DNA of 64,000 nt. Origin: a virus. Location of the stretch: IMG/VR virus record IMGVR_UViG_3300030060_007200. One strand, written 5' to 3'. Position numbers and translations under genes: made by a program. Shown in pieces: positions 549 to 62,708 of the stretch (positions are counted from its first letter, which is position 1; every line of letters begins with the position of its first letter). The notes beneath the pieces are model-generated. The model was not told the origin of the DNA and ran no database searches. It saw nothing but the letters and a program-made list of their open reading frames with translations.

Positions 549-604
549 TTATTTATCTCCTATCTTGTATAAGAATTAACCTTCTTAGGTCATGTTATTT
601 CTAA

Positions 605-612
605 TATAAATA
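605..612 (-). promoter_or_regulatory. Putative late promoter TATTTATA (one of about 17 copies)
   Basis: Same octamer at 3509, 4223, 7091, 9844, 11718, 15171, 20688, 24268, 30663, 39094, 48859, 50763, 56793, 59530, 60933 and 61080, nearly always just upstream of a gene start. Confidence 0.75.
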
Positions 613-635
613 TAATGATTAAATCTCAAAATATA

Positions 636-899
636 TTATTTCTCAGGCATAAATACACCTGTTTCAAGATTTAATTGGCCTACACCATATTTATCTGAAA
701 GTTCTTTGACGAAAGCTTTTTCTTCTTTTCTAATTTTGTCGTATTCTTTTTTTATTGTATTTTCGGTTTCTTCGATAACCAATTTATCCATAGCAAGTTG
801 ACCATAACTTACTGTAACAGTATTAAACCGTTGTCTAAAATCGTCTACCTTTTTCATTTCTTCTTCTGTAAACTTTGTGCCTTCTTTAATTTCAGCCAT
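636..899 (-). CDS. Small coiled-coil hypothetical protein
   Basis: 87 aa, charged and helical, with AGGAG RBS at 907-911. Confidence 0.8.
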   Translation of the reverse strand: MAEIKEGTKFTEEEMKKVDDFRQRFNTVTVSYGQLAMDKLVIEETENTIKKEYDKIRKEEKAFVKELSDKYGVGQLNLETGVFMPEK

Positions 900-920
900 T
901 TTTATTCTCCTATAACTTTA

Positions 921-1745
921 TTATGAATCCTTATATTTTTTGAACTGGGATTCGTCAGTTTCTTGATTATTTTGTATATCGTCCATTGTCTGAACTGTTT
1001 CATTACTAACAATTATTTTTACCTTTCCATAATCTTTAGGATTATAGTTAGACATTGCTTTTTGTATACTATCAGGTATAATAAATCCATTCATACTTAA
1101 TGTAAATGTTGATTTAGATATCCTATCCTCTCCTTGATTTGCAACAGATTCGATGTCAAAACTGTCAATTTTAGAAAGAAACTTAAAGGTATTATCCTGT
1201 CCCCAATATTGGTCTGCAGCATAATTTACATCTTCTATTATCTTATTTAGCTGTTCTAGATATTCTGTAAATATAACGCAGTCGTATGATAATTTTACAT
1301 AATCAGGTATTACAACATTGTGAAATTGTGTTTGAGGTTTTCTACCTGTCAATATATCAAATCTATCATATCTATTTCTTTGTGTATATTTTTTCTGAAA
1401 ACCATAGTATAATGGATTTTTTGTATCTACTTTACTTCCTAGGTCTCTACGTCTTTCGACGCTAGTTCTTTTATATACTATTGCAGGAAATTGTATTTTA
1501 CCTTTACTATCTCTATATATTCCTGTTTTCTGTATCGACTTCCATCTTTCTGGTGAGCCATAAACAACAGGTACATTTATACGACTACCATCTTCCATAA
1601 TACCTGGTTGTATCACATTATCGAAATAGTATTTTATTACAGAATCAACATCATATAAATTAACAGATAAATCTTTTATATTGTCGTCTCGTCTAATTTG
1701 ATTAGACCTATCTACGCTTTTATTCAATCTATTTGGATTAGCCAT
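921..1745 (-). CDS. Tail completion / sheath stabiliser (gp15-like)
   Basis: VPVVYGSPERW...FPAI...VVIPDYVKLSY...EQLNKIIE pattern; lies between neck and sheath genes. Start moved to the ATG at 1745, which follows GAGGAGG. Confidence 0.7.
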   Translation of the reverse strand: MANPNRLNKSVDRSNQIRRDDNIKDLSVNLYDVDSVIKYYFDNVIQPGIMEDGSRINVPVVYGSPERWKSIQKTGIYRDSKGKIQFPAIVYKRTSVERRRDLGSKVDTKNPLYYGFQKKYTQRNRYDRFDILTGRKPQTQFHNVVIPDYVKLSYDCVIFTEYLEQLNKIIEDVNYAADQYWGQDNTFKFLSKIDSFDIESVANQGEDRISKSTFTLSMNGFIIPDSIQKAMSNYNPKDYGKVKIIVSNETVQTMDDIQNNQETDESQFKKYKDS

Positions 1746-2340
1746 ATAATCCTCCTCTCTGCTCATCTATTTTTGTACCTGATATATATTCATCGTATCC
1801 TGCTCTTACTTTTTCAAGTGTTGCAATTTTACTTCTTCTCATTTCGTGTGTTTCAACAATTACAGACCACGAAGAACCGTGTGTTCCACTATTAGAATCT
1901 GTAGCAGGATTTTTACCAAACAAATATTGTCCAGATGATACGGTATCTATCTCGTGATAGTTGTTATCCCAATGTATAACATCACCTATCTCTAAAAATA
2001 TATCTGCTTCTTGGTGATTTAGATTTGGATTTGTTGTATTACCAGTACCTGAATTTTCTAAATCAGCTAAATCATCTCGTAAAAATGAAAACTTAACCTG
2101 TCTTGTAAAATCAGCACCAAGTTCTTCTGATGTATATTCTTTACCTTCCTTGTCTATAAGACCTGCAACTCTTACTCCAGGTTTGAAAACCTTATTAAGA
2201 GCCTCGCCATATAGATTCTCTTTACTGTCAAAAATAGAGTACTTGTATATATCACATCGAGTGTCAATGATTTCATTTAACAGCTCTCTGTTTAGATGCC
2301 TGAATAGACTTATATCTCTACTTCCTCCAAATAGTGCCAT
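1738..2340 (-). CDS. Neck / head-closure protein (gp14-like)
   Basis: Follows the gp13-like gene; NLYGEA and IGDVIHW motifs; synteny with T4 13-14-15. Confidence 0.65.
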   Translation of the reverse strand: MALFGGSRDISLFRHLNRELLNEIIDTRCDIYKYSIFDSKENLYGEALNKVFKPGVRVAGLIDKEGKEYTSEELGADFTRQVKFSFLRDDLADLENSGTGNTTNPNLNHQEADIFLEIGDVIHWDNNYHEIDTVSSGQYLFGKNPATDSNSGTHGSSWSVIVETHEMRRSKIATLEKVRAGYDEYISGTKIDEQRGGLYG

Positions 2341-2341
2341 G

Positions 2342-4199: not shown

Positions 4200-4239
4200 A
4201 ATCGAACCTCCATTGTATTTACTATAAATATGCAGACAT

Positions 4240-4298: not shown

Positions 4299-5951
4299 TT
4301 AGCTAGAGAAAGAACCAGATATTGAACCAAAGTTTGATACCCAAGCAGCATCGTTGACAATAACTTTACCGTAGAAGTCGTTACGAACAACTTTCTTCGC
4401 GTATCTTGTCATCACACCTTTTCTTGGAGTAAAGTTTGTTGGGTCATATACTAGTGGAGTCATGATTAACGGAATGTATGGAGCAAATACAGCACCAGTT
4501 TCAAGGAATTGAGTTCCTCTAAATCCAGTTAATACAGTTTCACCTGTCCAGTATGGGTTTTTGTAAATTGTAAATCTGTTCGAAAGTGAACCGATTGCAG
4601 TTACACCCATTGCGAATTGTCCTGCAGTACCATCAGTATTTGCAGAATATCCAGCGATAGACTCAAAGTATGTAGCGATTTGTGGTGAACAAACAACAAA
4701 GTTAGCACCGCCACGCATAGTTGACTGGTGAATTGTGTTTGACATTACTTGTAAAGTAACACCTAATCTAGCAAATGCGTCACCGTAAGTTTCTCCAGCA
4801 GCTGGGTCAGCAGCGTTGAATGTTGCAGAGAATGCAGCAGCGTTGTTAAGCATTGCAAGAATTTCCATATCGATTTCCATTGAAATGTATTCAGATAGCA
4901 TAGACGTTAATTCTGCTTCAGCATCAATTGAATGATAAGCATTTAAGTCTTGTGCAAATTCTGGTGACCATTTAACTTTTAATTTTCTAGTCTTAGCAAC
5001 TAAAGCCTCTTGAGTTAATTGAACATCGATTTCAGGAATTTCTAAATCGCCTGAAGTAGCAGTGATTTCTGGTTGTACAGTATCTTCACCTGGCGTAGCT
5101 CTTTTTAATGCATCAGTAGTATTCGTGTAGTAGAATAAAGTACCACCAGTACCTGGAAGAACCATGTTACCACCTGGAGCAACTGCAGAATTACCAACTC
5201 CCTTAAATGTAACAGTAGTAGTACCGTTATAAGCAGAAGCAGTAAATAAACAGTCAGCTTGAGCAGTAGTAAGACCTTCAGTACCATTTGTAAAGTCTGT
5301 TACTGTAGAAGTAGTCGAACCAGAAATTACATAGAATGAAGATGCTAAATCATAGTCTACGTCAGTTGGAGGAGTTCCAAATGAAAGAGTACCTGCAAGG
5401 TTTAATGCACCTGATGATAAATCAGAAGATGCAGAAACTGCAATTTTGTTTTTCATTATAGAATATCCAGCATTAACACCACCCATGTTAGTGTCCCAGT
5501 TACCGTATAAACCGTTGTTAATATTTGGCGCATCTTTGCCAGAACCACCATATAAAGAATCACCAGTTTCGTGACGTCCTTTTGAATGGTCAGCACCTGA
5601 GCCGCCGTATTTGAAGTCTAACCAGAAAACTAAACCTGAAGGCAAGTTCATTGGTTGTACGCTGACAAATTCCTTTGCAGAAATTTCAGCAAAGATTCTT
5701 CTAACTAATGGAAGAGCCACACCATTCCAGTTTTCTCTATTAGTACCAGTATCGATACTGTTAGCTTCTGAAATAAGTTGCTTAGCTTGGTTTTCTAAAA
5801 GAATCGCAGTGTTGTGCTTGTTGTACTCCTCAGAGATTCCTTCTAAAAGACCAGTCTTTTCCCATTTAGTTACAAGACCTCTAGTTTCGTTTCTCTGTGC
5901 TCTGAATTGAGCTTGAGAATCTTGTAATAAATCGTTGATTTGTGTTGACAT
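4299..5951 (-). CDS. Major capsid protein (T4 gp23-like)
   Basis: ILLENQ, PLVRR, VSVQPMNLPSG, TRKLKVKWSPEFAQDLNAYH, YIPL and PRKGVMTRY motifs. Confidence 0.97.
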   Translation of the reverse strand: MSTQINDLLQDSQAQFRAQRNETRGLVTKWEKTGLLEGISEEYNKHNTAILLENQAKQLISEANSIDTGTNRENWNGVALPLVRRIFAEISAKEFVSVQPMNLPSGLVFWLDFKYGGSGADHSKGRHETGDSLYGGSGKDAPNINNGLYGNWDTNMGGVNAGYSIMKNKIAVSASSDLSSGALNLAGTLSFGTPPTDVDYDLASSFYVISGSTTSTVTDFTNGTEGLTTAQADCLFTASAYNGTTTVTFKGVGNSAVAPGGNMVLPGTGGTLFYYTNTTDALKRATPGEDTVQPEITATSGDLEIPEIDVQLTQEALVAKTRKLKVKWSPEFAQDLNAYHSIDAEAELTSMLSEYISMEIDMEILAMLNNAAAFSATFNAADPAAGETYGDAFARLGVTLQVMSNTIHQSTMRGGANFVVCSPQIATYFESIAGYSANTDGTAGQFAMGVTAIGSLSNRFTIYKNPYWTGETVLTGFRGTQFLETGAVFAPYIPLIMTPLVYDPTNFTPRKGVMTRYAKKVVRNDFYGKVIVNDAAWVSNFGSISGSFSS

Positions 5952-5985
5952 TTTTAAGTCTCCTTATTATTTTGTCGTTAAAAAA

Positions 5986-6969: not shown

Positions 6970-7120
6970 TATTTTTCTCCTTTAATAAATTGTTCTGGAA
7001 ATAAGGCTATTAGGAGCCTTAATAGGTATTATATACTATATGCTGTATTATATTGAAAATAATACTTTTTGTGCATATCTAATTTTCTTATATAAATATA
7101 TATGTAAATACCGAAAAACT

Positions 7121-7166: not shown

Positions 7167-7511
7167 TTATTGGGCACCTCCTTTCGTCATCGCCATCCAT
7201 ACATATCCTTTATCATTCATAGCCTCAATTCTAGAATGATACTGTTGTTTTCTTACAGCATCCTCTTTTTGTTTTCTTCGTATTGCGCTAGGTTTGATAT
7301 ACTCCTTTTTGCTTTTGTATCTCATAATCTTTTCAGAATCTTTTAATTGACGTTTGAGATATTTCATTGCTCTTTCCAATGAATACGTACTTGAATCTGG
7401 TACCTTAACTCCTTCAGGACAGCCTTCTAAATAAAAGTCGTGTCTTCCAAAGCTTTTCTTTCTAAAAGACTTTTTCTTAAAGTCCTTTTTATAGTTCTGT
7501 TTGTGCTTCAT
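7167..7511 (-). CDS. rpsU: Phage-encoded 30S ribosomal protein bS21 with N- and C-terminal extensions
   Basis: Core GVKV...SLERAMKYLKRQLKDSEKIMRYKSKKEYIKPSAIRRKQK matches the bS21 pattern (ExAL+xfKR...YxKPS). Confidence 0.88.
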   Translation of the reverse strand: MKHKQNYKKDFKKKSFRKKSFGRHDFYLEGCPEGVKVPDSSTYSLERAMKYLKRQLKDSEKIMRYKSKKEYIKPSAIRRKQKEDAVRKQQYHSRIEAMNDKGYVWMAMTKGGAQ

Positions 7512-8691: not shown

Positions 8692-9753
8692 TTATACTCC
8701 AATCTTTGAATATGTTAACATATCGTTAATTGCCTTAAGTGCTTTTTTCTTTGCAGATTCAAATTCTTTTCCGTATCTTCCTGAACCTCCACCTTTTTTG
8801 GCATTTGATACCATTTTCATTATATCACCAATTTGCTTTGTTTCTTTAGAAGATTTCATTTTAGGTGCAGCTTCTGTTCTAAGATTAAGTCCTATACCTG
8901 GAGCTGATATAACATTTGATAAACCTTCGAATGCTTCATTTACAAGTTTATTAAATTTATCTGGTCTTTTACCTTCGTATCTTAAATCAAACATTAAATC
9001 TTGTATTTTTTTAGATGTAGCATTACCACCAGCTTTTTCAATTGCACGTCTAGCTTTCACAGCATTTTTAGCCAAAATTACATAATGTCCTTTTTTACCT
9101 TTAACATATCTATCAGCTTGAATTTTAGAGCCAGCTGGCCTTGAATTACCTCTTGGGTCAATTACTACATAAGATTCATTAACCGCTCCTTCATTTTTAC
9201 CTTTGTGTTTTTTATCTATAAGGTTAAAAAATTCTTTTTTCTTTTCGTCATCTAAATCTGCAGGTGAGTCTGCTCCAAATTTAGCCAATACAGCCTTGAA
9301 TAATTTTTGATATTTTTCTTGAGCCTCTGATTCGTCCACAGTTTCTTCTGTATGTCCTGGTTCATGAACTTCTTTTATTTCATAGTACTTACCAAGTTTT
9401 CCACCTATATCTTCAAATACAGATTCTAATCTTTGTTGTAGTGTAGATATTTCTTTGAATGTATTTTCAAATACTTTTACAGATTCTCCTATAGATTTTG
9501 TATCTCTTTTTACAGATACTGCATCGAACCAATCAGCAGTTTCTTCTATTGCCATTCTGCTAGCGTTTTCTGCCAATTTTTTAATATTTTCTACAAGCTC
9601 AGTTATTTCTTGTGTTTTATATACGTTTTGTCCTAACTCGTTAAATTTAGAAACAGCCTCTAGTGTTTGAGCCTTTTCCTCTTCAGTCATTCTTTTATTT
9701 TCAGTTGACTCGTTTAAGGAATGCTTCCAATTTCTAATATCAAATTTACTCAT
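8692..9753 (-). CDS. Probable internal head/core protein
   Basis: Start moved to MSKFDIRN (AGGAG at 9762-9766). Several [LV]NE-type sites separate modules. Confidence 0.55.
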   Translation of the reverse strand: MSKFDIRNWKHSLNESTENKRMTEEEKAQTLEAVSKFNELGQNVYKTQEITELVENIKKLAENASRMAIEETADWFDAVSVKRDTKSIGESVKVFENTFKEISTLQQRLESVFEDIGGKLGKYYEIKEVHEPGHTEETVDESEAQEKYQKLFKAVLAKFGADSPADLDDEKKKEFFNLIDKKHKGKNEGAVNESYVVIDPRGNSRPAGSKIQADRYVKGKKGHYVILAKNAVKARRAIEKAGGNATSKKIQDLMFDLRYEGKRPDKFNKLVNEAFEGLSNVISAPGIGLNLRTEAAPKMKSSKETKQIGDIMKMVSNAKKGGGSGRYGKEFESAKKKALKAINDMLTYSKIGV

Positions 9754-9754
9754 T

Positions 9755-10387
9755 TTATTTGCTCCTTGTTGGTAATGAACATTTGCATGCCAAATCGCAT
9801 AGCATTTCATTTATTATATTATTTACCTTGTCGTATTTATTTATATAAATATCATTGACAGATTCGTTTATTGGTCTCATGAACGCTCCATGCGTAGAAG
9901 GATTTGATACAAAATCCCAACAAACTAATTCAAAATCAGATTGAACTTCCATTGTACCATCCTCTGATAATTGCTTGACAGAACCAAGACCTCTTGAAGA
10001 TATACCAAGCTTAACTCCTGATTTTAATAATTCTTTAAGTATGTTTCCAGCTGGTGTACCTAGTACCTCTACAGTACCCATTACATCGTCACCTTTCCAC
10101 CACACCTTCTTTATATTATGAGATACATTTTGAAGATTAACAACAGACGATTCCGGATGGTCTAGTTCGCCAAGAGCACGATTTTCTGCTATCTGCACTT
10201 GTGAGTATTGTTTAACTTCTCTCATTAAAATTTCTTTTGGATATACTCGACCGTTTTGATTTTTTGCTCCAGCTCTTTGTAGTATACCTGTTACAATTAC
10301 ACGGCCATTATTTTGTTGTTCAGACTCAACTATCATTTGTGGAGAAATATCAAATGTTGTATAGTCTATTAGTACTTGTTTTGACAT
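9755..10387 (-). CDS. Prohead protease (gp21-like)
   Basis: NQNGRVYP, ALGELDHP, GISSRGLGS and WDFVSNPS motifs. Confidence 0.95.
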   Translation of the reverse strand: MSKQVLIDYTTFDISPQMIVESEQQNNGRVIVTGILQRAGAKNQNGRVYPKEILMREVKQYSQVQIAENRALGELDHPESSVVNLQNVSHNIKKVWWKGDDVMGTVEVLGTPAGNILKELLKSGVKLGISSRGLGSVKQLSEDGTMEVQSDFELVCWDFVSNPSTHGAFMRPINESVNDIYINKYDKVNNIINEMLCDLACKCSLPTRSK

Positions 10388-10851
10388 TAGAAGCTCCTTA
10401 ATTTTTCAGACAATCTTTCCATCTTTGCAGAGATTTTTTCTAGATTTTCTCTTGTAGACTTCCAGTATTTCGTTTCGTCTATACCTGTTTCTGTTTTTAA
10501 TTTTATATTTTGACCAATTATTCTTTCAATTCTAAACAGCTTGCTATTAACTTCTTTTATAGCTCTATTTACTTTTTGTTTTGCAGTTGCTGATTCGTCT
10601 TTTTTATAATCATTGTAATTTACTTCGTTCATCAATGTAAGCTTGGCCATTTTCATAAAAGTAGATTCTTCTACAACCTTATATCCCATAAGACCTTTTT
10701 CTAAATCTTTCTTTTTCTTTTTACCAAAAGCATACTTTGTATTATATTCACCACCTGCGTCAACTGTAGTGTTTGCTTCGTCTAATTCTTCTTCTTCGAT
10801 TTTCTTAAAATCAGCCTCAAACATTTTATCTAATTTTTTATTTAACGACAT
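10387..10851 (-). CDS. Head-cluster hypothetical protein
   Basis: Start MSLNKK with AAGGAG at 10859-10864; coiled-coil C-terminus. Confidence 0.7.
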   Translation of the reverse strand: MSLNKKLDKMFEADFKKIEEEELDEANTTVDAGGEYNTKYAFGKKKKKDLEKGLMGYKVVEESTFMKMAKLTLMNEVNYNDYKKDESATAKQKVNRAIKEVNSKLFRIERIIGQNIKLKTETGIDETKYWKSTRENLEKISAKMERLSEKLRSF

Positions 10852-50743: not shown

Positions 50744-50778
50744 GCTAACACTCCTATTTATATATAAATATACAAAAG

Positions 50779-51057: not shown

Positions 51058-51129
51058 AATTCTCTCCTTGTTTTTAATTTTGTTTTGTGGCATTATTGCC
51101 AGCGCGCATTTTTGTTAATTTCTAGTTAA

Positions 51130-51540: not shown

Positions 51541-51579
51541 ATTAAATTCTCCTTCTTGTTTTGGTTAGCTGCGCGCTAT

Positions 51580-53376: not shown

Positions 53377-53906
53377 GAATTCTCCTCCATTTTGTTTTTA
53401 ACTCTACTCCAATAATTAACTGTTTGTGGTTTTGCCAATCCTCTTGGTCCACCATTCCAGCATCGAGCTATGTGCTCCGGAGTGTTGAGGTTATAGTGAT
53501 TACAATATATTTTTAACATCTCTATGGATTTTGTACGACTCCATCTATCGTTGTATGTATATATTTTATTTTTTAATATTCTGTTAACATCGTCTACCAT
53601 AGTCTTTCTTATTTGTAAACAACCAACAGCGTCTTCGCTTGCATTATATGCGGAATCGTTACCAGAGCTTTCAACAAAAATAAGAGCAGATATCATATTT
53701 GTTTCCATATCTACAAAATCATATATTTCCAATCTATTATTTAGAGTGTCTATTTCTTTATATAAACTATCTATAATATTTTCATACGATTCTAACTCTT
53801 TATGCATTTGCTTAATCTGGTTTTCTGAATCAAGCTGCATCATAAGTAACAATGCCATTGCCGAAACAATGAACAATACATATAATATATTTTTCATATT
53901 AGTCAA
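53373..53906 (-). CDS. Membrane-anchored lysozyme (i-type/destabilase- or SLT-like)
   Basis: N-terminal TM, coiled coil, then VESSGN...AVGCLQI...IARCWNGGP...YW. Confidence 0.75.
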   Translation of the reverse strand: MTNMKNILYVLFIVSAMALLLMMQLDSENQIKQMHKELESYENIIDSLYKEIDTLNNRLEIYDFVDMETNMISALIFVESSGNDSAYNASEDAVGCLQIRKTMVDDVNRILKNKIYTYNDRWSRTKSIEMLKIYCNHYNLNTPEHIARCWNGGPRGLAKPQTVNYWSRVKNKMEENS

Positions 53907-54117: not shown

Positions 54118-54181
54118 TCATTTACTCCAATAGTTTTTATTATATACTAATATAACAAATTTTTATGAATTATGAAAACAA

Positions 54182-54685
54182 TTAGCTGAATAATTTTGTA
54201 ACTAGTGATTCTGTAAATTTACCGTTTATTATTTTTGTGTAGTTTTTAATTTTTCTTGTAACTTCCTTCTTGTCTTTTTTCCAACGAAGGCCTTTTAGTT
54301 CTTTTTTAAGGTTTGCTATTTGCAAAGCCGCTTTATCTTTATATTCTTGTTTTTCTTTCTTAGAAAGTCTTTTCTTCTTTTCAATTTTTGTTGGTTGTAG
54401 AGTACCTTTCAGCTTAGGTTGTTCTACTCCTTTATGGTATACATTACCATTCCTATCAACAAATTCTTTCATAAAGTGCCAGCCTGATGGTTTACCTGTA
54501 TTACCTCTAACATTTATTACAGGCGGCTCGGTCATTTCCATTACGCATTCGTGACATACAGTAGATGTTGTATCTTCTGAAACAGGTGAAAACTGTCCAC
54601 ATATTTTACATTCCATGTATTTATACAATCTATCTGGATTCTGATTCCATTTATGTCCTTTTCTATATTCTATTGCGTATTCCAT
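54182..54685 (-). CDS. Hypothetical Zn-ribbon protein
   Basis: CKIC...CHEC; GWHFMKEFVD...G motif; basic tail. Confidence 0.75.
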   Translation of the reverse strand: MEYAIEYRKGHKWNQNPDRLYKYMECKICGQFSPVSEDTTSTVCHECVMEMTEPPVINVRGNTGKPSGWHFMKEFVDRNGNVYHKGVEQPKLKGTLQPTKIEKKKRLSKKEKQEYKDKAALQIANLKKELKGLRWKKDKKEVTRKIKNYTKIINGKFTESLVTKLFS

Positions 54686-54689
54686 ATTC

Positions 54690-55670
54690 TTATTTTTTAC
54701 CTTTTACTTTATTTCTTATATTATTAAGTATACCGCTTACAGAGTTTATTTTATCCTCAAAGTCCTTAATTTTACGTAAACCATTGGCTACCTCACCATT
54801 AAGTGTTTCAACTTTTTCTAAGCGATTCATTCCAGACATGTCCAAACCTAAATCTTCCATCTCGTCTTTAGTTGTTATTCTACTAAATGCAAAGTTTGCT
54901 GTTACAACTAATGCTATTGCTAATGGGTCAAATACAAAAACTATTAAAAGTAAAAACCAATTAACAACCTTATCCATAGTTGCGCCTGTCATGTCTGATA
55001 AATATTTTAGAGGACCTAGCTCTCTTTGTTCTTCATTGCCTATTTCCAATTTTAATAAATCAGTATCTAATTTCATTATAGAATCTTGTACAGCTTCTAA
55101 TTTTAGATTTATATTATTTCTATCATCGATTGTTGTATTTAATTCTGACTGCAAAGCTTTTCTAGCAGATGATGAAGTGGTTGTTATTAACTGGCCAGAT
55201 TCTCTATCAACATATTGTACCTGTGCTGGATTTGATAGTGAAACCCTTAATTCTTTTATAGTATTATTTAATTGAGTTTTTTCTATTATTAGGTCGTTTT
55301 TATTATCCTCAAATCTATCCTGCTTTACTTGTAATACTGCCAATGACTTGTCTAAAAACTCAGACTTTGTTGCAGTCTCTTGATATGCTCCTGATAAAAA
55401 TCCGTATATACCACCTGATGTAATTACCATTAAAACAAATACTGCAATTGATAAATATATTTTTAGAGCCTTGCTTATTTCTTTCCAGTATTGGTAAAGC
55501 AGGGATGCGGTGACTAACTTTGCAAACTCTAAACTACCAGCCATTATTATTACCTGGGTACTTGCGCCTGCAAACAGTTTGCTCAAACCAAATACAGAAT
55601 AAAATGCTGCTGACGCTGAAACTGACAATGCACTAAACGCTATTAAATAAGGAAGGATTTTTGTTTTCAT
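54690..55670 (-). CDS. Membrane protein with a long coiled coil
   Basis: Three N-terminal TM helices, coiled coil, ELGPLKYL and FVFDPLAI TM. Confidence 0.8.
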   Translation of the reverse strand: MKTKILPYLIAFSALSVSASAAFYSVFGLSKLFAGASTQVIIMAGSLEFAKLVTASLLYQYWKEISKALKIYLSIAVFVLMVITSGGIYGFLSGAYQETATKSEFLDKSLAVLQVKQDRFEDNKNDLIIEKTQLNNTIKELRVSLSNPAQVQYVDRESGQLITTTSSSARKALQSELNTTIDDRNNINLKLEAVQDSIMKLDTDLLKLEIGNEEQRELGPLKYLSDMTGATMDKVVNWFLLLIVFVFDPLAIALVVTANFAFSRITTKDEMEDLGLDMSGMNRLEKVETLNGEVANGLRKIKDFEDKINSVSGILNNIRNKVKGKK

Positions 55671-56536
55671 GATTTGCTTGGTGGTTGGTTAGAACTATAT
55701 ACCAATGTATATATTACCTTGCCATCTAAATCTTCTTTGATTCTTATTTCAGAATCCACAATTCCTAGTTTTTCTATAATTGTTTGAAGCCTAGATATTT
55801 TTTCAGAATCATAATTGCTTATACAAATATATTCACCAATAATTGTTACAACCATATTGTTGTAGTCATATCTTTTTTCGAATAAATTATATACCTCTTC
55901 ATCTAAAACAGGTACTAAAGGTAAATCATGTATAAGTCTTTCTGAATAATATTTTTGATTTTTTATGTCTAAATTTTCAAACCACTTTTTGAATGATGTA
56001 TAATCACCTTCAAAAATATTTTTGTCATTGTCTTTCATTAACGACCACATCTCTACAGTTGTTAATGCCTCGGGTATATATTTTTTATCTTTACCCATTT
56101 TCCAAGTACCATCTTTATTCGATTCGAAGTTTGTTCTATATTGCTTAAATAAATTTATTAAATTATCTATAGAATTCAACCCCTGTCTATTTGTATCTTT
56201 TATTTTAGGTGGCACATAATCTGAGTATGTATTGTCTAACGTTATTTCCTTAATAAGTTTTGTTAAACCTTTTTTACCAGAATCTAATAAATTTTTTAGT
56301 TCCTGGCATTTTTCGTATTCTTCTGTTTCAATAAAATAATCTATGATGTCATTTAGAATATCAGTAAGTTCTTTTACATCTAGACTAAATGGGTCGTATA
56401 ATATATAATGCGTTTCATTACCTGCTACGGCGAAGTTATCGATTTTTGATTTACCGGTAACTAACCTATAGGTATTTAGAAATGCTACATCCAAACCTTC
56501 AGTGTTTAATTCTTGTGATTCATACGATTCCATCAT
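55667..56536 (-). CDS. Hypothetical protein with a UVR-like motif
   Basis: IETEEYEKCQELKN. Confidence 0.7.
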   Translation of the reverse strand: MMESYESQELNTEGLDVAFLNTYRLVTGKSKIDNFAVAGNETHYILYDPFSLDVKELTDILNDIIDYFIETEEYEKCQELKNLLDSGKKGLTKLIKEITLDNTYSDYVPPKIKDTNRQGLNSIDNLINLFKQYRTNFESNKDGTWKMGKDKKYIPEALTTVEMWSLMKDNDKNIFEGDYTSFKKWFENLDIKNQKYYSERLIHDLPLVPVLDEEVYNLFEKRYDYNNMVVTIIGEYICISNYDSEKISRLQTIIEKLGIVDSEIRIKEDLDGKVIYTLVYSSNQPPSKS

Positions 56537-56558
56537 ACTCCAATTATTTATTTTGTTA

Positions 56559-56792
56559 CCTCTAACCTCCGAAGCTTATACGGTGTGCTTCTTCTACCGT
56601 TGGTTTAGGGTGCCTTATCAGGCAGCCATCGCCATTTCAACTTGTGCGCCAGTTATGCGTTGAACTTCCTTATATCCTTTTCACCGTGTCAAATCCAGTC
56701 ACCCCCATGTTTTAACCTAAATCTTCTTGTGGAGGTGGAGGGTATCGAACCCTCGTCCAACAATGCAGCTAATATAAGTAATAGCGTTCAAA
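56559..56792 (-). ncRNA. ssrA: Circularly permuted (two-piece) tmRNA; tag (A)GAQVEMAMAA
   Basis: Acceptor piece GGAC-GAGGG-UUCGAUA-CCCUC-CACCUCC-A (56758-56730) lies upstream of the 5' strand GGGGGUG-ACUGGAUUUGAC (from 56706). G3-U70 pair present; tag ORF at 56650-56618. Confidence 0.92.
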
Positions 56793-56800
56793 TATAAATA

Positions 56801-57028
56801 TCACTTCTCTACCTGTTTTTTAGGTTTTCTTCTATAAGTTCTGCGATTATTTTTAGGTGCAGATTTCCTAGAATTTTTTCCAAGTGATTTGATTTCGTTT
56901 TTTAGTAATTCATTTACTAGAATTTTATCTTCTAATAATTGTTTAACTGTAACGAATCTTTTGTTTAGATATAGTACTGTTCCTAATATACCTAAACCAA
57001 ATGCTAGTATTACTGATAATGTTATCAT
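56801..57028 (-). CDS. Small membrane-anchored basic protein
   Basis: N-terminal TM helix; K/R-rich tail. Confidence 0.7.
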   Translation of the reverse strand: MITLSVILAFGLGILGTVLYLNKRFVTVKQLLEDKILVNELLKNEIKSLGKNSRKSAPKNNRRTYRRKPKKQVEK

Positions 57029-57300
57029 TTCTTATACCCTTTCCATGTTCCTGTTCCCTCTTCAAGCATGCCAAGTCTTTGTCCTACTTTATACATTTTC
57101 TGCATATCATACATAGTCTCTATAACTCTATTTGTTTCAGAGAATGTTAATTCAATTCTCTTACCATCTATAAAGAATGTACCGATTAAAGGTTGATTAG
57201 CATCTCCTTGCGGACGTAATGCTTTAGCTCCTTTCATTAACTCACAGTCAATTGTTGACCAAACTTTCCCATACTTTTGGGGATTAAATTTCTTTGCCAT
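57025..57300 (-). CDS. Hypothetical protein
   Basis: 91 aa; A-rich leader with no SD. Confidence 0.7.
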   Translation of the reverse strand: MAKKFNPQKYGKVWSTIDCELMKGAKALRPQGDANQPLIGTFFIDGKRIELTFSETNRVIETMYDMQKMYKVGQRLGMLEEGTGTWKGYKK

Positions 57301-57461
57301 GTTTTATTTTTTTTAGCAAATTATGTCTACTCTTTTACATTTAGGATTTTCGACTTTCTCCTTAGAATTATCTAATATATTATTTTAATTTATTAGTTAA
57401 TTATTATATTAGTATACTAATTATTAGTATTATTAGTAATTACTATTATTAGTTTTTTACT

Positions 57462-57500
57462 ACTAATATATTAAAAATTTCCGACAAATAAAAATATTTT
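57462..57500 (-). promoter_or_regulatory. Host-type (early/middle) promoter
   Basis: Minus strand TTTTATTTGTCGG...TATATTAG, resembling the Bacteroidota -33/-7 (TAnnTTTG) layout. Confidence 0.55.
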
Positions 57501-57511
57501 CAGAACTTTTT

Positions 57512-57748
57512 TTATTTTAATGGATATAAACCTTCTAGTAATTGTATCATATATACATTTATCAGGTTTTGTTTATATTCCAATGATTCGTTTTTAGACA
57601 TTATCTTTTCTATATAATGACATACAGGACTATCAGTCGGCTGTATTATAGCGTCGGCTCTATATAAATCAGTGACGCCTTCTGCACCATTATACTTAAA
57701 TGCAGATATAATTCTATCTTTGTCCAAATATCTTTTATTGAACCCCAT
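57512..57748 (-). CDS. Hypothetical protein
   Basis: 78 aa starting MGFNKRYL. Confidence 0.7.
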   Translation of the reverse strand: MGFNKRYLDKDRIISAFKYNGAEGVTDLYRADAIIQPTDSPVCHYIEKIMSKNESLEYKQNLINVYMIQLLEGLYPLK

Positions 57749-58484
57749 GCTTTTCCTCTTTCAATCTTTTGTTAAATAATCTATTTGATTCGTAATTATA
57801 TGTATACAAATGAATCACAGATGCCTGGCTCTTACTAGCAGTGCCTGTAAGTACACCTCCATTGAATATTGAAGACATAATTTTATTTCCTTTTGGTATG
57901 TGTCCTCCCTCGCCATCAGCTGTCCAAGTTATATCTTTATAATGAGCAACAATTTTTCCTTTGCATCTTACAAGTATTTCATTAGCCATAGTTTTATATG
58001 GCTTGTTTTTATATCCTCTACAATAGTCTATCCAGTCTTTATCGCCGTATGGGTCTAGCTTTGTAGATTTTCTAACATTTAATACAACTATTTTTCTATC
58101 TGTATTTCTTAATTCTTTTTTCAGTCCCCATAGGTCAATGTTTATACCTGTGTTTAGCTCGTCTTCAAGCCTATCAAATTTCTTAAAATAATGCTTACCT
58201 CCATGACCGCGTTTTATATTTAACAGTCCTTCAGGTATACAAATCTGAGGATACTTCCAACAAGTTTCTATCAACATTGTTTCGGCATTTGTAGCGTCCT
58301 CTTCTGTCTTAAATCTTCCAAGAAGTCTAAACGAATATTCGTTGTTTCTTAACCAATCGACTTTTTTACCTGTATCGTTTTCTTGTATATGTTGAGTAAC
58401 TCTATCTGTCTGGCCTTTACCTACGTAAGCATGTAAACCTTTTTTAGAGAAATAACCATATACATAATATTTATATGCTTCCAT
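57735..58484 (-). CDS. GIY-YIG (LEM-3-like) nuclease-domain protein
   Basis: YYVYGY...YVGKG..R...E..LI...LLN..G. Confidence 0.7.
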   Translation of the reverse strand: MEAYKYYVYGYFSKKGLHAYVGKGQTDRVTQHIQENDTGKKVDWLRNNEYSFRLLGRFKTEEDATNAETMLIETCWKYPQICIPEGLLNIKRGHGGKHYFKKFDRLEDELNTGINIDLWGLKKELRNTDRKIVVLNVRKSTKLDPYGDKDWIDYCRGYKNKPYKTMANEILVRCKGKIVAHYKDITWTADGEGGHIPKGNKIMSSIFNGGVLTGTASKSQASVIHLYTYNYESNRLFNKRLKEEKHGVQ

Positions 58485-58800
58485 TTAGAAAATCTTTTTG
58501 GTCTTTAAGAGCCTGCTTAAGTTCATCTGACTTAATTTTTTTAGACTTTTTCTTACCTCCTTCACTAGCTTTCATTACAGCTAAAGCAGTTTTATCTCTT
58601 CGTATAATCCTTTCGTGTGTCATACAAGGATATATTGTAAAACCTACTCTTGATTTAGAGTTTTCATCTACTTGTATTTTATAGTCAGGAGTACCGTTAT
58701 CCTTAAATGTTAATTCTTTAATTTTACCAGTAAGTATTTCGCCGGTTAGAAATTTGAATGTGACTATGTCACCAACGTTGTATAAATGTTTTTTTGCCAT
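58471..58800 (-). CDS. Hypothetical protein (SH3/Tudor-like N-terminus)
   Basis: YNVGDIVTF...GKI...Y pattern. Confidence 0.7.
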   Translation of the reverse strand: MAKKHLYNVGDIVTFKFLTGEILTGKIKELTFKDNGTPDYKIQVDENSKSRVGFTIYPCMTHERIIRRDKTALAVMKASEGGKKKSKKIKSDELKQALKDQKDFLNGSI

Positions 58801-58801
58801 A

Positions 58802-59263
58802 TTATTTATTTAAGTTATTTAATAAGTTTTCTACAGGTGTTAACAATTCTATTGTGTTAACTGTTGTTGGCCAGTCAAATCCGTTTTGGCCAAAATGAAT
58901 CCAAGTACCTTTGAAGTCAGATTGACCTCTGGTATTTGTATCGTCGATTAGTATGTCTCCAATCAACAAATCTTTTCTATGTGTTAAGAACATTTTTCTA
59001 GACAGTTCAGGTAGATGTTTTGCAATCCAGTTTCTTTTCTGTCCCCAAGAATCCGGGTGGTTCCAGGGTGGAGTTGTAGCAATGAATACCTCATGACCCA
59101 TATCCAATATTTTTTTAACTGCATCTATTGCACCAGGCATTGGCTCGAACTTTGAAAAGTCCAGTACCTCATCAGGATTTTTTACGTGTGGTATTTCGTT
59201 AGCTGCCTTTTGAAAGTTGGCAAGTACACCATCCATATCTATATAAATTCTTAATTTTTCCAT
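58802..59263 (-). CDS. 5'(3')-deoxyribonucleotidase (HAD, NT5C family)
   Basis: DMDGVLANF, PMPGA, K..W and GDILIDD motifs. Confidence 0.92.
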   Translation of the reverse strand: MEKLRIYIDMDGVLANFQKAANEIPHVKNPDEVLDFSKFEPMPGAIDAVKKILDMGHEVFIATTPPWNHPDSWGQKRNWIAKHLPELSRKMFLTHRKDLLIGDILIDDTNTRGQSDFKGTWIHFGQNGFDWPTTVNTIELLTPVENLLNNLNK

Positions 59264-59266
59264 ATA

Positions 59267-59506
59267 TTAAATTGATTCGTTATACCATTCATTGTCTAAT
59301 TCTTTAGAGCAAGGAACGCTGTCATTAGAAAGTGCTGATACAAAACAAAATACAGCAATTAGTAAATTGCAAATACAAAATGCCATTTCGTTAAGTGGGT
59401 CAGCAAAGTTAATGTAATTTAGAATATCGCCAGTACCAGTAATGTATGCGATGTATAGGGCGGCCAAACCTAGTGTAGCGTAGCCAAATTTTTTAATCTT
59501 ATTCAT
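59267..59506 (-). CDS. Small two-TM membrane protein
   Basis: Two hydrophobic helices. Confidence 0.7.
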   Translation of the reverse strand: MNKIKKFGYATLGLAALYIAYITGTGDILNYINFADPLNEMAFCICNLLIAVFCFVSALSNDSVPCSKELDNEWYNESI

Positions 59507-59529
59507 GTTTCAATTGTTATTATTTATAC

Positions 59530-59570
59530 TATAAATATACGCAAAATTTCCGAGATATAAAAGGATTTTG
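59530..59570 (-). promoter_or_regulatory. Early-type promoter
   Basis: Minus strand AAATCCTTTTATATCTCGG...TATATTTA; near-copies at 60933-60970 and 62709-62747. Confidence 0.6.
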
Positions 59571-59602
59571 CTGCCTTTTTTTTAATTTTATTAACAAAGT
59601 TA

Positions 59603-60913
59603 TTAACAATCTCTTTGTGCATTGTAGACGTGTTTTAGTACAGGGAATCGCAATGAGTATTCTCCTTGTTTGTTTTGTGACTCTTCAAAGTATTGAACTG
59701 TAACAATTTTTCCAAGAATTTTGGTATGGTCTTTGTAGTATTCTTTTCTTTGTTCTAGTGTAAAACCAGAACCTACACCAACCTTATTACCTTTGTGCTC
59801 TATTACGATATTACTTAAACAAGGTATTGTTTTTTCTACACCGTCCTCTATAATCCTTATATCTCCATTGACAGCACCGATAACTTTGTATTCAGCATCA
59901 TGCATTTGTTTTACCTTGAGAATATCCTTAGAACGTTTACCTTTATATCCTGAGTTTTTACGAATCATAATACCTTCATGACCGGCAGCTATAGCCTCGT
60001 CGTTTATGTGGTTGAAGTATTTTACATTAGGTATAAAATCCTGGTCAAGTACATCGATAATATTATCGTTACAGTTAGATATATGTAGTTGGTGTATGGA
60101 ATTTTCATATCGAACATATAGTGGCGTATCGCCTTCTTGTTTCGCAAATTCCTGAAGTGTAAGCATATCGAATACAAACATCTTAGGGTTATCAATGGTG
60201 TGGTTTTTACGTCTTATTTGTTTCATAATATCTTGGAAGTTTTCGTTTCCATTATCATCTACAATACATACCTCACCGTCAAGAACAAAGTCGCCTTCGA
60301 TTTTATTAACCTCGTCAATTAAATTACCTAGTGTTTCAAACTCCTTGCCTTGTCTAGAATAAGCCTTTGTGATACCGTTTTCTTTAAGTATAATACATCT
60401 TACGCCATCTAGTTTCCTAGAACCAAACCATTCCTCGTTTTCAAAATCCGGCATGTCCTTAATAGCTTCAGCCAATGCAACCTTGAACTGTGGTATAAGT
60501 CCAGGTATTGACTTGTTAATTAAACTAGCGCCAGCACGTGTTTTTAAGTCCTTGTCAATTATATTGTATATGATATCCTCATATTCTTTATTTGCCAATA
60601 CAAAACCATTAACCGCAGATATTGCAGCATGGCCAGTAAGTACCTTGTTGTCCAAGTCGTCAAGTAAATCGAATAGTAAATAAAGGTCGTCGCTATCGCA
60701 TAGGTCATGACGCTTTTTACAATTGTCTGATGTTACACCAAACTGTATATAAGGACTATATACATATTGTAGTACTTGGCAAAGCCATTTGTTTTGAGAA
60801 TATGATTTGATTATTTCTTTCTTTTCGTTGGAGCTTGATGTAGCTTGTAATTCCTGTGAAAAGTTTTTGACCGCCTGAAGGGTCCTTTGTGTTTCTAGTT
60901 TGTTCCAGTTCAT
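59603..60913 (-). CDS. ATP-dependent DNA ligase
   Basis: KLDGVR, LDGE, FD, EGIMIR, LKVK, VGSG and SLRFP motifs. Confidence 0.96.
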   Translation of the reverse strand: MNWNKLETQRTLQAVKNFSQELQATSSSNEKKEIIKSYSQNKWLCQVLQYVYSPYIQFGVTSDNCKKRHDLCDSDDLYLLFDLLDDLDNKVLTGHAAISAVNGFVLANKEYEDIIYNIIDKDLKTRAGASLINKSIPGLIPQFKVALAEAIKDMPDFENEEWFGSRKLDGVRCIILKENGITKAYSRQGKEFETLGNLIDEVNKIEGDFVLDGEVCIVDDNGNENFQDIMKQIRRKNHTIDNPKMFVFDMLTLQEFAKQEGDTPLYVRYENSIHQLHISNCNDNIIDVLDQDFIPNVKYFNHINDEAIAAGHEGIMIRKNSGYKGKRSKDILKVKQMHDAEYKVIGAVNGDIRIIEDGVEKTIPCLSNIVIEHKGNKVGVGSGFTLEQRKEYYKDHTKILGKIVTVQYFEESQNKQGEYSLRFPVLKHVYNAQRDC

Positions 60914-60932
60914 TTGTTAATTATTATTTATA

Positions 60933-60970
60933 TATAAATATAATAAAAATATACGACATATGAAAGGATT
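60933..60970 (-). promoter_or_regulatory. Early-type promoter of the DNA ligase gene
   Basis: Minus strand AATCCTTTCATATGTCG...TATTATATTTA. Confidence 0.6.
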
Positions 60971-61001
60971 ATAGCAACTATTTTAGAAAAGTTATTAACA
61001 A

Positions 61002-61076
61002 TTATATTCCTAGAAGAAATACAATTACCATAATTGCTATATACATAAACGGTGTTATATCTATTTTGTTTTCCAT
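61002..61076 (-). CDS. 24-aa single-TM micropeptide
   Basis: MENKIDITPFMYIAIMVIVFLLGI; TATTTATA motif 3 nt upstream. Confidence 0.5.
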   Translation of the reverse strand: MENKIDITPFMYIAIMVIVFLLGI

Positions 61077-61131
61077 ATCTATAAATATTTTACTACAATC
61101 CCAAGTATGTTAACAAATTATTAACAAATTG

Positions 61132-61476
61132 TTATTTAACTTGCCATTTATACTCAGTAATATACCAGACCTCATCTGCATAGTATTTGTTTCTCGTGAA
61201 ATATATTCTTCTTTCGGCCTCCCATTTATTAGAAGACCAATAAACAATGTTGTTTTTAGCCTCCGATTTTCGATCGGTGTAATACACAATCTTGTCAGCC
61301 TGCCATTTGTTCTTTGTTTCATAAACCTTTACAACATCTTTCTCCCATTTATATTCGGTAGCATATAACACCTGAGCATTACATGACTCTGCAAATATTA
61401 CAAAGAAAACCATCAGTGCTGTAAGTATTATCAACAGTCTATTGGCATATTGTGCGCCTCTTTCTTCTTCTGTCAT
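61132..61476 (-). CDS. Secreted/periplasmic short-repeat protein
   Basis: Signal peptide, then repeated vY.T..KW.A(D) units. Confidence 0.7.
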   Translation of the reverse strand: MTEEERGAQYANRLLIILTALMVFFVIFAESCNAQVLYATEYKWEKDVVKVYETKNKWQADKIVYYTDRKSEAKNNIVYWSSNKWEAERRIYFTRNKYYADEVWYITEYKWQVK

Positions 61477-61477
61477 T

Positions 61478-61675
61478 TTAATCTAATTCTAAGTATTTTA
61501 ATAAAAAATCTAATTTTGCATCTATAGCATCCATCTTTTTAAGAACCTCGTCCATCGTCTTAATCATGTCGGCCGCCTCACTCTTTCTCGCTTGCCCGTT
61601 CGGGGCGCGGTAGCCATAATTTTTAATTTGGCGTAGTTGGTTAAGGGTTCTTGGTTTTTTTCTTTTTCCGTCCAT
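61478..61675 (-). CDS. Hypothetical basic coiled-coil protein
   Basis: Probable start MDGKRKK. Confidence 0.6.
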   Translation of the reverse strand: MDGKRKKPRTLNQLRQIKNYGYRAPNGQARKSEAADMIKTMDEVLKKMDAIDAKLDFLLKYLELD

Positions 61676-61838
61676 TGTTTTTCTCTTTGTAAATTTCGTA
61701 CGCACGTTCGAACTTGTCTCCCATAGTGCGATATTTGTTAGTATCTAGTGTTTTACTAATCTTCATGACACCTTCGTATACATGTTCGCCTTCGTTATAA
61801 AATTGCATTAACAAATCTTCTACTCTATCAAACCCCAT
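61641..61838 (-). CDS. Hypothetical protein
   Basis: TAATG-coupled to the upstream gene. Confidence 0.6.
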   Translation of the reverse strand: MGFDRVEDLLMQFYNEGEHVYEGVMKISKTLDTNKYRTMGDKFERAYEIYKEKNNGRKKKKTKNP

Positions 61839-62356
61839 TACATCTTCCAATTTCTAAACGCATAAGCTATTTCGTCGTCCACTTTATTATCCTCAGTATA
61901 AGCAATTTTATCAGGTAGAGGTAATAAGGTATTAACAATAGTACGTAGATTAAATACATGGGTAGAACTAATGGTATGACTAGCGTATAAGGATTCTATC
62001 CAATCGATACACCAGTCGCGTCCACGGTCCAGATTAAATTCCAAATCCTTTAGGGTACGCGCATAATCTTCGTCGGTAGGAATGCGAAATACTCGAACAG
62101 AACCTGTAAGCTTTGTATTAGACTTTGGAGATTTACCACCACGTAGTCCACGCATAATACCGTAACCTGCACGCTGCGATAACTTGTTAACCTTGTCTGC
62201 TGTGGCCTTGTCCATAACCTGAATTGTATTACCTGTTTTGTGATAGGTAATATCTACACACGAAACGGCCTCGACGGTACTGCAATCGACACATTCCTTG
62301 TAGCCTAGGTCTACACGACCTTGTGGTATTACTGATTTACACTTTATGCAATGCAT
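61838..62356 (-). CDS. Protein with an N-terminal DksA/TraR-type C4 zinc finger
   Basis: CIKCKSVIPQGR...ECVDC; start moved to MHCIKC. Confidence 0.7.
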   Translation of the reverse strand: MHCIKCKSVIPQGRVDLGYKECVDCSTVEAVSCVDITYHKTGNTIQVMDKATADKVNKLSQRAGYGIMRGLRGGKSPKSNTKLTGSVRVFRIPTDEDYARTLKDLEFNLDRGRDWCIDWIESLYASHTISSTHVFNLRTIVNTLLPLPDKIAYTEDNKVDDEIAYAFRNWKM

Positions 62357-62544
62357 AGCTTTTCCTTTAGTCGACGTATATGTTTGCAGTCCTGATAAGG
62401 TCGGTACATATGACCTATACAATCGCAACTGGCACTAGACGTCTTGTGATTAAGTGTTACTGTATAGTAATTTAGCTTGCCGGTCTTTTTATTACGCGAC
62501 CCCATTTCGCTATAGTCGCTTGTATATGAAAAAGGATTATCCAT
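62344..62544 (-). CDS. SWIM zinc-finger protein
   Basis: YTVTL...CDC...CKH. Confidence 0.8.
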   Translation of the reverse strand: MDNPFSYTSDYSEMGSRNKKTGKLNYYTVTLNHKTSSASCDCIGHMYRPYQDCKHIRRLKEKLCIA

Positions 62545-62683
62545 TTACTGCACGTTTTTTATTGTACGTCCACTCCTTTTCCTCTTTGGTAAGGTGTTTG
62601 CCTTTTACCGGCTCCATAACATAGTAGTATCCGCCGCAACCGTCGGACTTTTCTACTACCTCGTATAACATTTGTTTATCCAT
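62537..62683 (-). CDS. 48-aa hypothetical protein
   Basis: MDKQMLYEVVEKSDGCGGYYYVMEP...; first ORF after the promoter at 62709. Confidence 0.55.
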   Translation of the reverse strand: MDKQMLYEVVEKSDGCGGYYYVMEPVKGKHLTKEEKEWTYNKKRAVNG

Positions 62684-62708
62684 ATTTTTACAATTTTAAT
62701 TTATACTA

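Follow-up and report, generated by a model that had tools for sequence, protein, structure and literature searches.

Shine-Dalgarno sites on a conserved subset of genes in a marine T4-like phage that encodes a long bS21 paralogue

The 64,000-nucleotide (nt) stretch of viral DNA analyzed here (IMG/VR record IMGVR_UViG_3300030060_007200; hereinafter, the window) belongs to a marine T4-like phage that has not been cultured; its G+C content is about 33%, and it carries all its genes on the (-) strand. Somewhat less than half of these genes are preceded by a Shine-Dalgarno (SD) site, the others start without one, and among the latter is the gene for a paralogue of the ribosomal protein bS21. A preliminary description of this DNA had proposed two initiation modes in one genome, and two kinds of start region, conserved between orthologues, do coexist here. 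A link between SD use and the phage bS21 is plausible, being supported by comparison with related phages, but unproven.

Genes and Shine-Dalgarno sites of the window

The closest cultured relative, judged by the capsid protein, is Flavobacterium phage vB_FspM_immuto (hereinafter, immuto), a 160-kb T4-like myovirus whose counterpart is 46% identical to the major capsid protein of the window (5951..4299); no close DNA relative was found among 50,697 phage records. Gene functions were assigned from homology to immuto, PHROGs and Pfam, with PHROGs naming few genes and immuto proving more useful. In the order of transcription, an AAA ATPase gene is followed by a block of small genes with a ligase and an NT5C/HAD-like gene (62683-54182), a permuted transfer-messenger RNA (tmRNA), an SLT-domain (lytic transglycosylase-like) gene and a phosphohydrolase gene, and then the baseplate and tail-fibre genes. 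Next come a SegE-like endonuclease, primase and an SbcCD fusion, further fibre genes and the holin and, at the end, terminase, portal, protease, bS21 (7511..7167), scaffold and capsid, followed by PhoH, head completion genes and the sheath.

Because circularity had to be avoided, gene starts were assigned by an SD-blind rule, namely, the most upstream ATG whose overlap with the preceding gene does not exceed 14 nt, and the tests were repeated with the starts of the longest open reading frames (ORFs); an SD was scored as GGAG or GAGG at positions -18 to -4 of the start. Such motifs precede 29 of the 67 SD-blind starts (43%). Among the remaining 1355 ATGs of the sense strand the share is 6%, and in shuffled leaders it is 5% and never above 13%. 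The preliminary description had suggested computing the anti-SD pairing energy for all starts, and in this energy the starts differ from the ATGs elsewhere (Mann-Whitney p = 5e-10). GGAG most often lies 7-8 nt from the start codon and is at 5-10 nt in 23 of the 27 sites, and extended complementarity to the 16S rRNA tail (TAAGGAG, AAGGAG, GGAGGT) is found, with pairing energies of up to -12 kcal/mol. The SD signal in the window is real, non-random and properly spaced from the start codons.

The individual sites given in the preliminary description are borne out. All 12 starts that it listed as 'late' and AGGAG-led (548, 899, 1745, 5951, 6969, 9753, 10851, 37122, 48836, 50743, 51057 and 51540) have GGAG or AGGAG 5-10 nt upstream, and the GGAG sites that it placed before the portal (13571), holin (15589) and PhoH (4199) genes are all present. 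Its 11 SD-less 'early' starts (7511, bS21; 34725, primase; 54685, 57300, 58484, 58800, 59263, 59506, 60913, 61476 and 62683) all lack GGAG and GAGG and have A/T-rich leaders. Five of its starts (1745, 9753, 10851, 48836 and 51057) differ from the longest-ORF starts; the SD-blind overlap rule also picks four of them, the exception being 51057, which one public gene call uses.

The sites are listed below, together with the SD status of the orthologous genes in five long relatives (86-147 kb; G001-G005).

557..561 (-), AGGAG, 8 nt before the sheath start 548
907..911 (-), AGGAG, 7 nt before start 899 of the 87-amino-acid gene
1752..1758 (-), GAGGAGG, before start 1745; -12 kcal/mol, the strongest in the window
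4206..4211 (-), GGAGGT, before the PhoH start 4199; a strong SD on a non-structural gene, with an SD in all five relatives
5960..5966 (-), TAAGGAG, 8 nt before the major capsid protein start 5951; SD in all five relatives
6977..6982 (-), AAGGAG, 7 nt before the scaffold start 6969
8697..8700 (-), GGAG, 7 nt before start 8689 of a prohead core-like gene
9762..9767 (-), AAGGAG, 8 nt before start 9753
10394..10400 (-), TAAGGAG, 6 nt before the prohead protease start 10387; SD in all five relatives
10859..10865 (-), TAAGGAG, 7 nt before start 10851
13582..13585 (-), GGAG, 10 nt before the portal start 13571
15597..15600 (-), GGAG, 7 nt before the holin start 15589
18465..18468 (-), GGAG, 11 nt before start 18453
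21614..21618 (-), AGGAG, 9 nt before start 21604 of a tail-fibre-like gene
25737..25740 (-), GGAG, 8 nt before start 25728
33832..33835 (-), GGAG, 7 nt before the TTG start 33824 of the SbcC-SbcD fusion (DNA metabolism); SD also in G003, G002 and G001
37129..37133 (-), AGGAG, 6 nt before start 37122
39072..39075 (-), GGAG, 9 nt before start 39062
48844..48850 (-), TAAGGAG, 7 nt before start 48836
50751..50755 (-), AGGAG, 7 nt before start 50743
51064..51069 (-), AAGGAG, 6 nt before ATG 51057; the start is ambiguous, the longest ORF beginning at 51093, without an SD
51549..51554 (-), AAGGAG, 8 nt before start 51540
52358..52361 (-), GGAG, 7 nt before start 52350
52632..52635 (-), GGAG, 10 nt before start 52621
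53382..53388 (-), GGAGGAG, before the phosphohydrolase start 53376
54125..54128 (-), GGAG, 7 nt before start 54117, the first SD-led gene in transcription order, which lies behind the early/middle-type motif TTTGTTATATTA

The principal SD-less features are the following.

54182..62683 (-), block of 17 consecutive genes, small ORFs among them, with a single GAGG (before 57748) and A/T-rich or very short leaders
33814..34725 (-), DNA primase; ATG 5 nt after TTATATTA (34738..34731); SD-less in the window and in G003, G002 and G001
13588..15165 (-), large terminase, a late gene without an SD; ATG 5 nt after TATTTATA (15178..15171); SD-less in all five relatives
7167..7511 (-), bS21 paralogue of 114 amino acids; SD-less, A-rich leader, early-type promoter-like motif, and terminator-like hairpins on both sides

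Shine-Dalgarno status, gene class and promoters

The preliminary description had equated the presence of an SD with late genes and its absence with early ones. This holds for the early blocks of small genes, which are uniformly SD-less; elsewhere, many exceptions occur in both directions and are conserved. Among the block starts (54182 and above), a single weak GAGG, before 57748, amounts to 1 SD in 17, matching the 5% expected from shuffling, compared with 28 of the 50 other window genes (Fisher p = 2e-4, for a boundary chosen after looking; 0.009 with longest-ORF starts), and the mean pairing energy is -1.3 kcal/mol in the block vs -5.3 kcal/mol in the rest (p = 3e-5). The longest SD-less run in the window comprises 11 genes (permutation p = 0.03), is sensitive to one doubtful GTG start and is broken up with longest-ORF starts. 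Long SD-less runs recur in the relatives, with 24 genes in G002 (p = 3e-4), where the run consists of small genes behind early-type promoter motifs, and 37 genes in G001 (p = 0.014). Long blocks of small genes that lie behind early-type promoters and lack SDs are the part of the class claim that stands. The block of the window includes genes for an ATP-dependent DNA ligase (60913..59603), which is SD-less, an NT5C/HAD-like protein (59263..58802) and a DUF6150 protein (61476..61132; PF19647, 42 bits), and a DUF805b RNA motif of Rfam (57324-57363 (-), 37.8 bits vs a threshold of 35.6) lies in the long leader of gene 57300. A public contig of 143 kb begins with the ligase and gives no further view of the early region.

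Outside the block, the SD is absent from 22 of the 50 window genes, including terminase, several baseplate and tail genes, and genes 24266 and 20683; conversely, the non-structural genes for SbcCD (33824), PhoH (4199) and the phosphohydrolase (53376) are SD-led. When the genes of the window and the five relatives were classed by homology to immuto, 63 of the 132 structural genes (48%) were SD-led vs 31 of the 74 replication and nucleotide metabolism genes (42%), which is not significant. Instead of following the functional class, SD status follows the individual gene. An SD precedes the genes for capsid, protease, sheath, tube and PhoH in each of the five relatives and those for SSB, GroEL/ES and portal in most of them, and RecA and SbcCD are SD-led in relatives as well, whereas none of the five has an SD before any identified gene for DNA polymerase, helicase, exonuclease, PD-(D/E)XK nuclease, primase, terminase, tape measure or bS21. 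At about 50% amino acid identity, reciprocal best hits share SD status above chance (58 of the 79 pairs between G002 and G003, p = 4e-5). These comparisons indicate that SD status is stably kept gene by gene and that the assignment of the start-region type is under selection.

Promoters do not divide the two kinds of start either. The motif ATATTTATA, which is the reverse complement of the T4 late promoter TATAAATA, is strongly strand-specific (18 sense and 2 antisense sites in the window, 16 and 1 in immuto) and is likely to be a late promoter of this phage group; its sense sites in the window, placed before operons, include 50771, 39102, 15179, 11726, 4231 and 613. It is found upstream of SD-led operons, the tmRNA, the SD-less ligase and the SD-less gene 59506 alike, and early-type promoter motifs also occur ahead of SD-led genes, namely, SSB in G004 and 54117 in the window. 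Promoter class as the divider of SD-led from SD-less genes was rejected on these grounds, and the SD classes are promoter or temporal classes in no simple sense.

In many of the SD-less genes, a promoter-like motif (TTATATTA or TATTTATA) ends only 1-5 nt ahead of the ATG, as at 34725, 24266, 20683 and 15165 in the window and at DNA polymerase and exonuclease genes of the relatives. This proximity suggests that the messages of these genes may be leaderless.

The phage bS21, related phages and the probable host

Compared with PF01165, the bS21 paralogue of the window scores 24.9 bits (E = 1.7e-5), under the gathering score of 27; bS21 chains from the PDB match its residues 37-91 with E values of 0.006-0.009, the KPS motif is retained, and the nearest Atlas clusters are 88-95% PF01165. 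The protein has a basic N-terminal extension of about 35 residues and a conserved C-terminal tail. The Tyr54-Ile55 pair of F. johnsoniae bS21 (7jil chain z), the signature of anti-SD sequestration in Bacteroidota, is replaced by Arg-Lys in the window protein, and position 54 is Arg in 21 of the 22 distinct bS21 sequences of the window's subclade; Arg or Lys is also found there in both non-Bacteroidota-type reference chains that were aligned (S. aureus 5nd8; 8fmw). No phage bS18 or bS6 gene that could provide a co-factor was found.

The bS21 gene of this subclade has an A-rich leader without an SD and a conserved early-type motif upstream. In the window, the 'TCGG' of this motif forms the 3' half of a hairpin of 17 base pairs with a T run after it (7556-7593 (-)), which may be a terminator-promoter junction or an operator; by eye, a similar arrangement perhaps lies upstream of 62683. 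Unlike in the window's subclade, GAGG precedes the bS21 gene in two deep-branching relatives (L193:1597-1866 and L200:1532-1798).

The distribution of bS21 and of SD sites was examined in 69 viral contigs around capsid homologues, and a later scan added about 45 loci with a long bS21. Among the 69, SDs precede 36-83% of the genes at every locus where a bS21 homologue lies ahead of the capsid gene, and the added loci are mostly SD-using, although two short fragments (L187 and L205) scored none. The immuto genome encodes no bS21 and has GGAG or GAGG before 5 of its 225 genes, below the 10% background, yet still shares the ATATTTATA motif; the immuto-like, bS21-less clade of Flavobacterium phages has 7 SD sites in 300 genes, and no PF01165 match was found in immuto-like contigs of 55-122 kb. 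In a third group, 33 contigs encode a short, F. johnsoniae-like bS21, mostly with Tyr54, on the opposite strand; its gene occupies the equivalent head-module slot in 24 contigs and lies beside a baseplate module in 8. None of the 477 genes of this group has an SD, capsid and portal included. In the capsid tree, the SD-using set with the long bS21 and the immuto-like set are split by one long branch.

The third group corresponds to the freshwater myoviruses of Bacteroidota that encode bS21 and have Bacteroidota as predicted hosts; their bS21, with Tyr54 or another aromatic residue, has been hypothesized to enter host ribosomes and to favor phage messages, and the phage start regions were not analyzed (Chen et al. 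2022, PMC9723584). From the retained aromatic residue, the authors concluded that the anti-SD stays blocked (PMC9723584). As in those phages (PMC9723584), the window bS21 gene lies inside the head module, among terminase, portal, protease and capsid, but the freshwater protein is short, host-like and encoded on the opposite strand, whereas the window-type proteins comprise 104-123 amino acids, are extended at both termini, have Arg54 and are encoded on the same strand as their neighbors; the absence of SDs from the 33 freshwater-type contigs contrasts with a window genome half of whose genes are SD-led.

The host of the window phage is most probably a member of the Bacteroidota, whose ribosomes normally hide the anti-SD. 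This assignment is made because relatives G001, G002 and G005 encode type IX secretion system (T9SS) cargo: ORFs of about 1000 amino acids match PF18962, the type A C-terminal domain (40-44 bits vs a cut-off of 27), with a 'YPNP...' motif and an end 3 residues before the stop codon. Other potential clues to the host were uninformative. The permuted two-piece tmRNA (56618-56791 (-); ARAGORN, 56527-56821, tag GAQVEMAMAA; Rfam RF04321, 67.4 bits vs a gathering score of 47) has TATTTATA directly upstream (56800-56793), and G002 and G003 have members of the same family; it was rejected as a host marker because tmRNAs in two pieces occur widely among marine phages and may differ from that of the host (PMC9004378), and is no argument against a Bacteroidota-type host. 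The Bacteroidota promoter TTG-N19-TAnnTTT(G/A), searched loosely, gave 30 sense and 8 antisense sites in immuto and 4 vs 7 in the window. A pattern scan of 185,579 species genomes found no relatives of the DUF6150 protein, the controls being silent as well, and an outer-membrane-like protein and the Atlas neighbors of bS21 led to phage or metagenome relatives only.

Several further features of these genomes were observed. A gene for a SegE-like GIY-YIG homing endonuclease (34756-35196 (-); PF19835, E = 1.4e-31) lies between a tail-fibre-like gene and the primase gene, and SbcD and SbcC are joined in one fused ORF of 1048 amino acids (30678-33824 (-)), with an 11-nt overlap between its TTG start and the primase stop. 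At 133250-133741 of immuto (L003), where the record annotates only gp058 and gp059, tiny reverse-strand ORFs, a homologue of window gene 2340..1738 is encoded; this is probably a gene missed in that record. A 136-amino-acid protein (51130-51540 (-)) has a signal peptide and a weak match to outer-membrane beta-barrels, and the number of its homologues in marine metagenomes, including Tara Oceans (>1500, the best 120 at 70-100% identity), indicates that the phage clade is very abundant.

A possible role of bS21 in Shine-Dalgarno use

The SD-led genes encode mostly bulk products (capsid, scaffold, protease, sheath, tube and portal) along with PhoH and SbcCD, and the SD-less set, with A/U-rich or nearly leaderless starts, consists of the early-promoter blocks of small genes, the bS21 gene, replication enzymes and terminase. 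We tentatively favor, as a possibility that falls somewhat short of probable, the interpretation that the phage bS21 re-opens the anti-SD of host ribosomes that are otherwise blind to SDs, with the SD serving as a phage translational enhancer. Under this scenario, unmodified host ribosomes would make the long bS21 from its SD-less message; the protein would then displace the host bS21 and free the anti-SD, with Arg, in the subclade, in place of the Tyr54 that stacks on the anti-SD in Bacteroidota. The SD would thereafter act as a private enhancer that favors bulk phage proteins over SD-less host messages, and genes that are read before the switch, or are needed in small amounts, would remain SD-less. 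With greater reserve, we consider a more specific form of this idea, a private translation channel in which the SDs of dozens of phage genes are ignored until the long bS21 is in place, with the early genes and the bS21 gene, all SD-less, as the bootstrapping set.

The precedent comes from F. johnsoniae, in which Tyr54 stacks on A1534 where the 16S rRNA tail enters the bS21/bS18/bS6 pocket (Jha et al. 2021, PMC7797042). Loss of bS21 or the Y54A substitution raises the translation of strong-SD mRNAs 3-5 fold (PMC9976891), and Y54A alone makes it about 3-fold higher and leaves SD-less messages unchanged (McNutt et al. 2023, PMC9976891). The autoregulation of the rpsU gene in this bacterium, where loss, C-terminal deletion or Y54A of bS21 frees the anti-SD, follows the same logic as that proposed for the phage (PMC7797042, PMC9976891). 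However, it is a host feedback on one gene, whereas the phage case would be a viral take-over of dozens of genes; moreover, the host rpsU is SD-led and the window bS21 gene, the opposite, is SD-less. The Pelagibacter phage HTVC008M is likewise a marine T4-like phage, and its bS21 enters ribosomes (Mizuno et al. 2019, PMC6375957); it differs in belonging to another lineage with a SAR11 host and in having a host-derived bS21 and a modest share of GGAG or GAGG (15% in the first 50 kb, where no class pattern is noticeable by eye).

Several observations weigh against this interpretation. In the capsid tree, the co-occurrence of SDs and a long bS21 comes down to roughly one deep branch; the association is, for this reason, essentially a single evolutionary event, which could equally mark a change of host. 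The L021 lineage, inside the SD-rich clade, has SDs on 75-82% of its genes without a bS21 in the usual slot or anywhere in its 38.7-kb contig, the longest available. The deeper SD-using branches L183, L184, L190 and L191 have Tyr or Phe at position 54, as does L036 (Tyr), and the L130-L137 group, with a non-aromatic residue there, still lacks SDs; because of these two sets of cases, residue 54 alone cannot be the switch. The proposal that Arg54 is the switch is weakened accordingly, and the N- and C-terminal extensions of the long bS21 are equally good candidates. T9SS tags also occur in relatives of Bacteroidota, and the HTVC008M bS21 impaired E. coli ribosomes in vitro (PMC6375957); bS21 swaps can, therefore, have other effects. 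The claim of the preliminary description that the SD split is the mRNA side of a bS21 switch survives, then, in that SDs mark the long-bS21 clade and are absent from two related groups and in that the bS21 gene itself is SD-less in all five relatives, and is curtailed by the roughly single transition and the L021 exception, so that it stands unproven.

Because the SD-led set resembles a list of abundant proteins, a strong rival, even if on the whole unlikely, is that SDs merely tune expression in an SD-competent host to which the clade moved, strong SDs marking bulk proteins, weak or missing ones marking enzymes and small early proteins, and bS21 having another purpose. Abundant capsid, scaffold, sheath, tube, SSB and GroEL dominate the SD-led set, and mainly catalytic or low-copy proteins (polymerase, helicase, primase, terminase and tape measure) make up the SD-less one, with no difference between functional classes. 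A change of host would also fit the very long branch that separates the SD-plus from the SD-minus clades, the retention of SDs in the L021 lineage, where no bS21 is seen, and the Microcystis phage Mel-JY01, which is equally distant by capsid and infects a cyanobacterium. What speaks against tuning of this kind is the T9SS cargo in three relatives, which indicates a Bacteroidota-type host, and the existence of two related groups of Bacteroidota phages without SDs even on capsid genes. Furthermore, the 17-gene first block of the window and the blocks of 24-37 genes in relatives have SDs at or below chance, and such long gene blocks would be unusual for phages of SD-using hosts.

It is rather improbable that the SDs are used independently of the phage bS21, either because another factor depletes the host bS21 or through exploitation of natural bS21-free ribosomes, the phage protein being unrelated or secondary. 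Natural bS21-free ribosomes that prefer strong SDs do exist in F. johnsoniae (PMC9976891), and both the SD-rich L021 lineage and the variability of residue 54 among SD-using lineages are compatible with this explanation. Yet phages of the same broad group that lack the long bS21 are SD-free or almost so (7 sites in 300 genes of immuto-like phages, 0 in 477 genes of short-bS21 phages), the long bS21 is retained in about 45 SD-using loci that include the slot, and neither a candidate depletion factor nor phage bS18 or bS6 has emerged.

The strict temporal switch of the preliminary description, under which SD-led genes are late-promoter genes and SD-less genes early-promoter genes, read by ribosomes in different states, is very improbable. 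The scarcity of SDs in the early block (1 in 17 vs 28 in 50 elsewhere), the long SD-less runs behind early-type promoters in G001 and G002, and the SD-led genes within most ATATTTATA-led operons all fit it. However, terminase and genes 24266, 20683, 48444, 47920 and 43544 are SD-less although late by position, SbcCD, PhoH, SSB, RecA and GroEL are SD-led, an early/middle-type motif and an SD are combined at SSB (G004) and 54117, ATATTTATA precedes the SD-less ligase and gene 59506, and the function-based test is not significant. The fate of SDs differs between gene classes in T4 too, a textbook comparison; there, all classes use SDs and an endonuclease destroys the early ones, whereas in the window an entire class is without SDs. 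That the GGAG motifs are RNA-processing or protein-binding sites near starts rather than ribosome-binding sites has a textbook precedent in T4 RegB, which cleaves GGAG inside early-gene SDs, but is hardly tenable given the tight 5-10 nt spacing to start codons, the extended 16S-tail complementarity (TAAGGAG, GGAGGT), the enrichment specific to true starts (43% vs 6%) and the retention of the motif in orthologues despite diverged flanks.

Among viral ribosomal proteins, phage-encoded bS21 is the commonest, and what it does has been an open question since 2019. The current idea, that bS21 redirects ribosomes to phage messages, has so far come without a feature on the message side, and a full-text search of the literature found no paper linking phage bS21 to SD use in phage genes; the conserved SD sites supply such a feature, and one that can be tested. 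If the link fails, SD use is still shown to differ sharply and heritably between the genes of one phage. If it is true, this would be the first virus found to change the start-site rule of the host ribosome, and would parallel, in nature, the Y54A experiments in F. johnsoniae.

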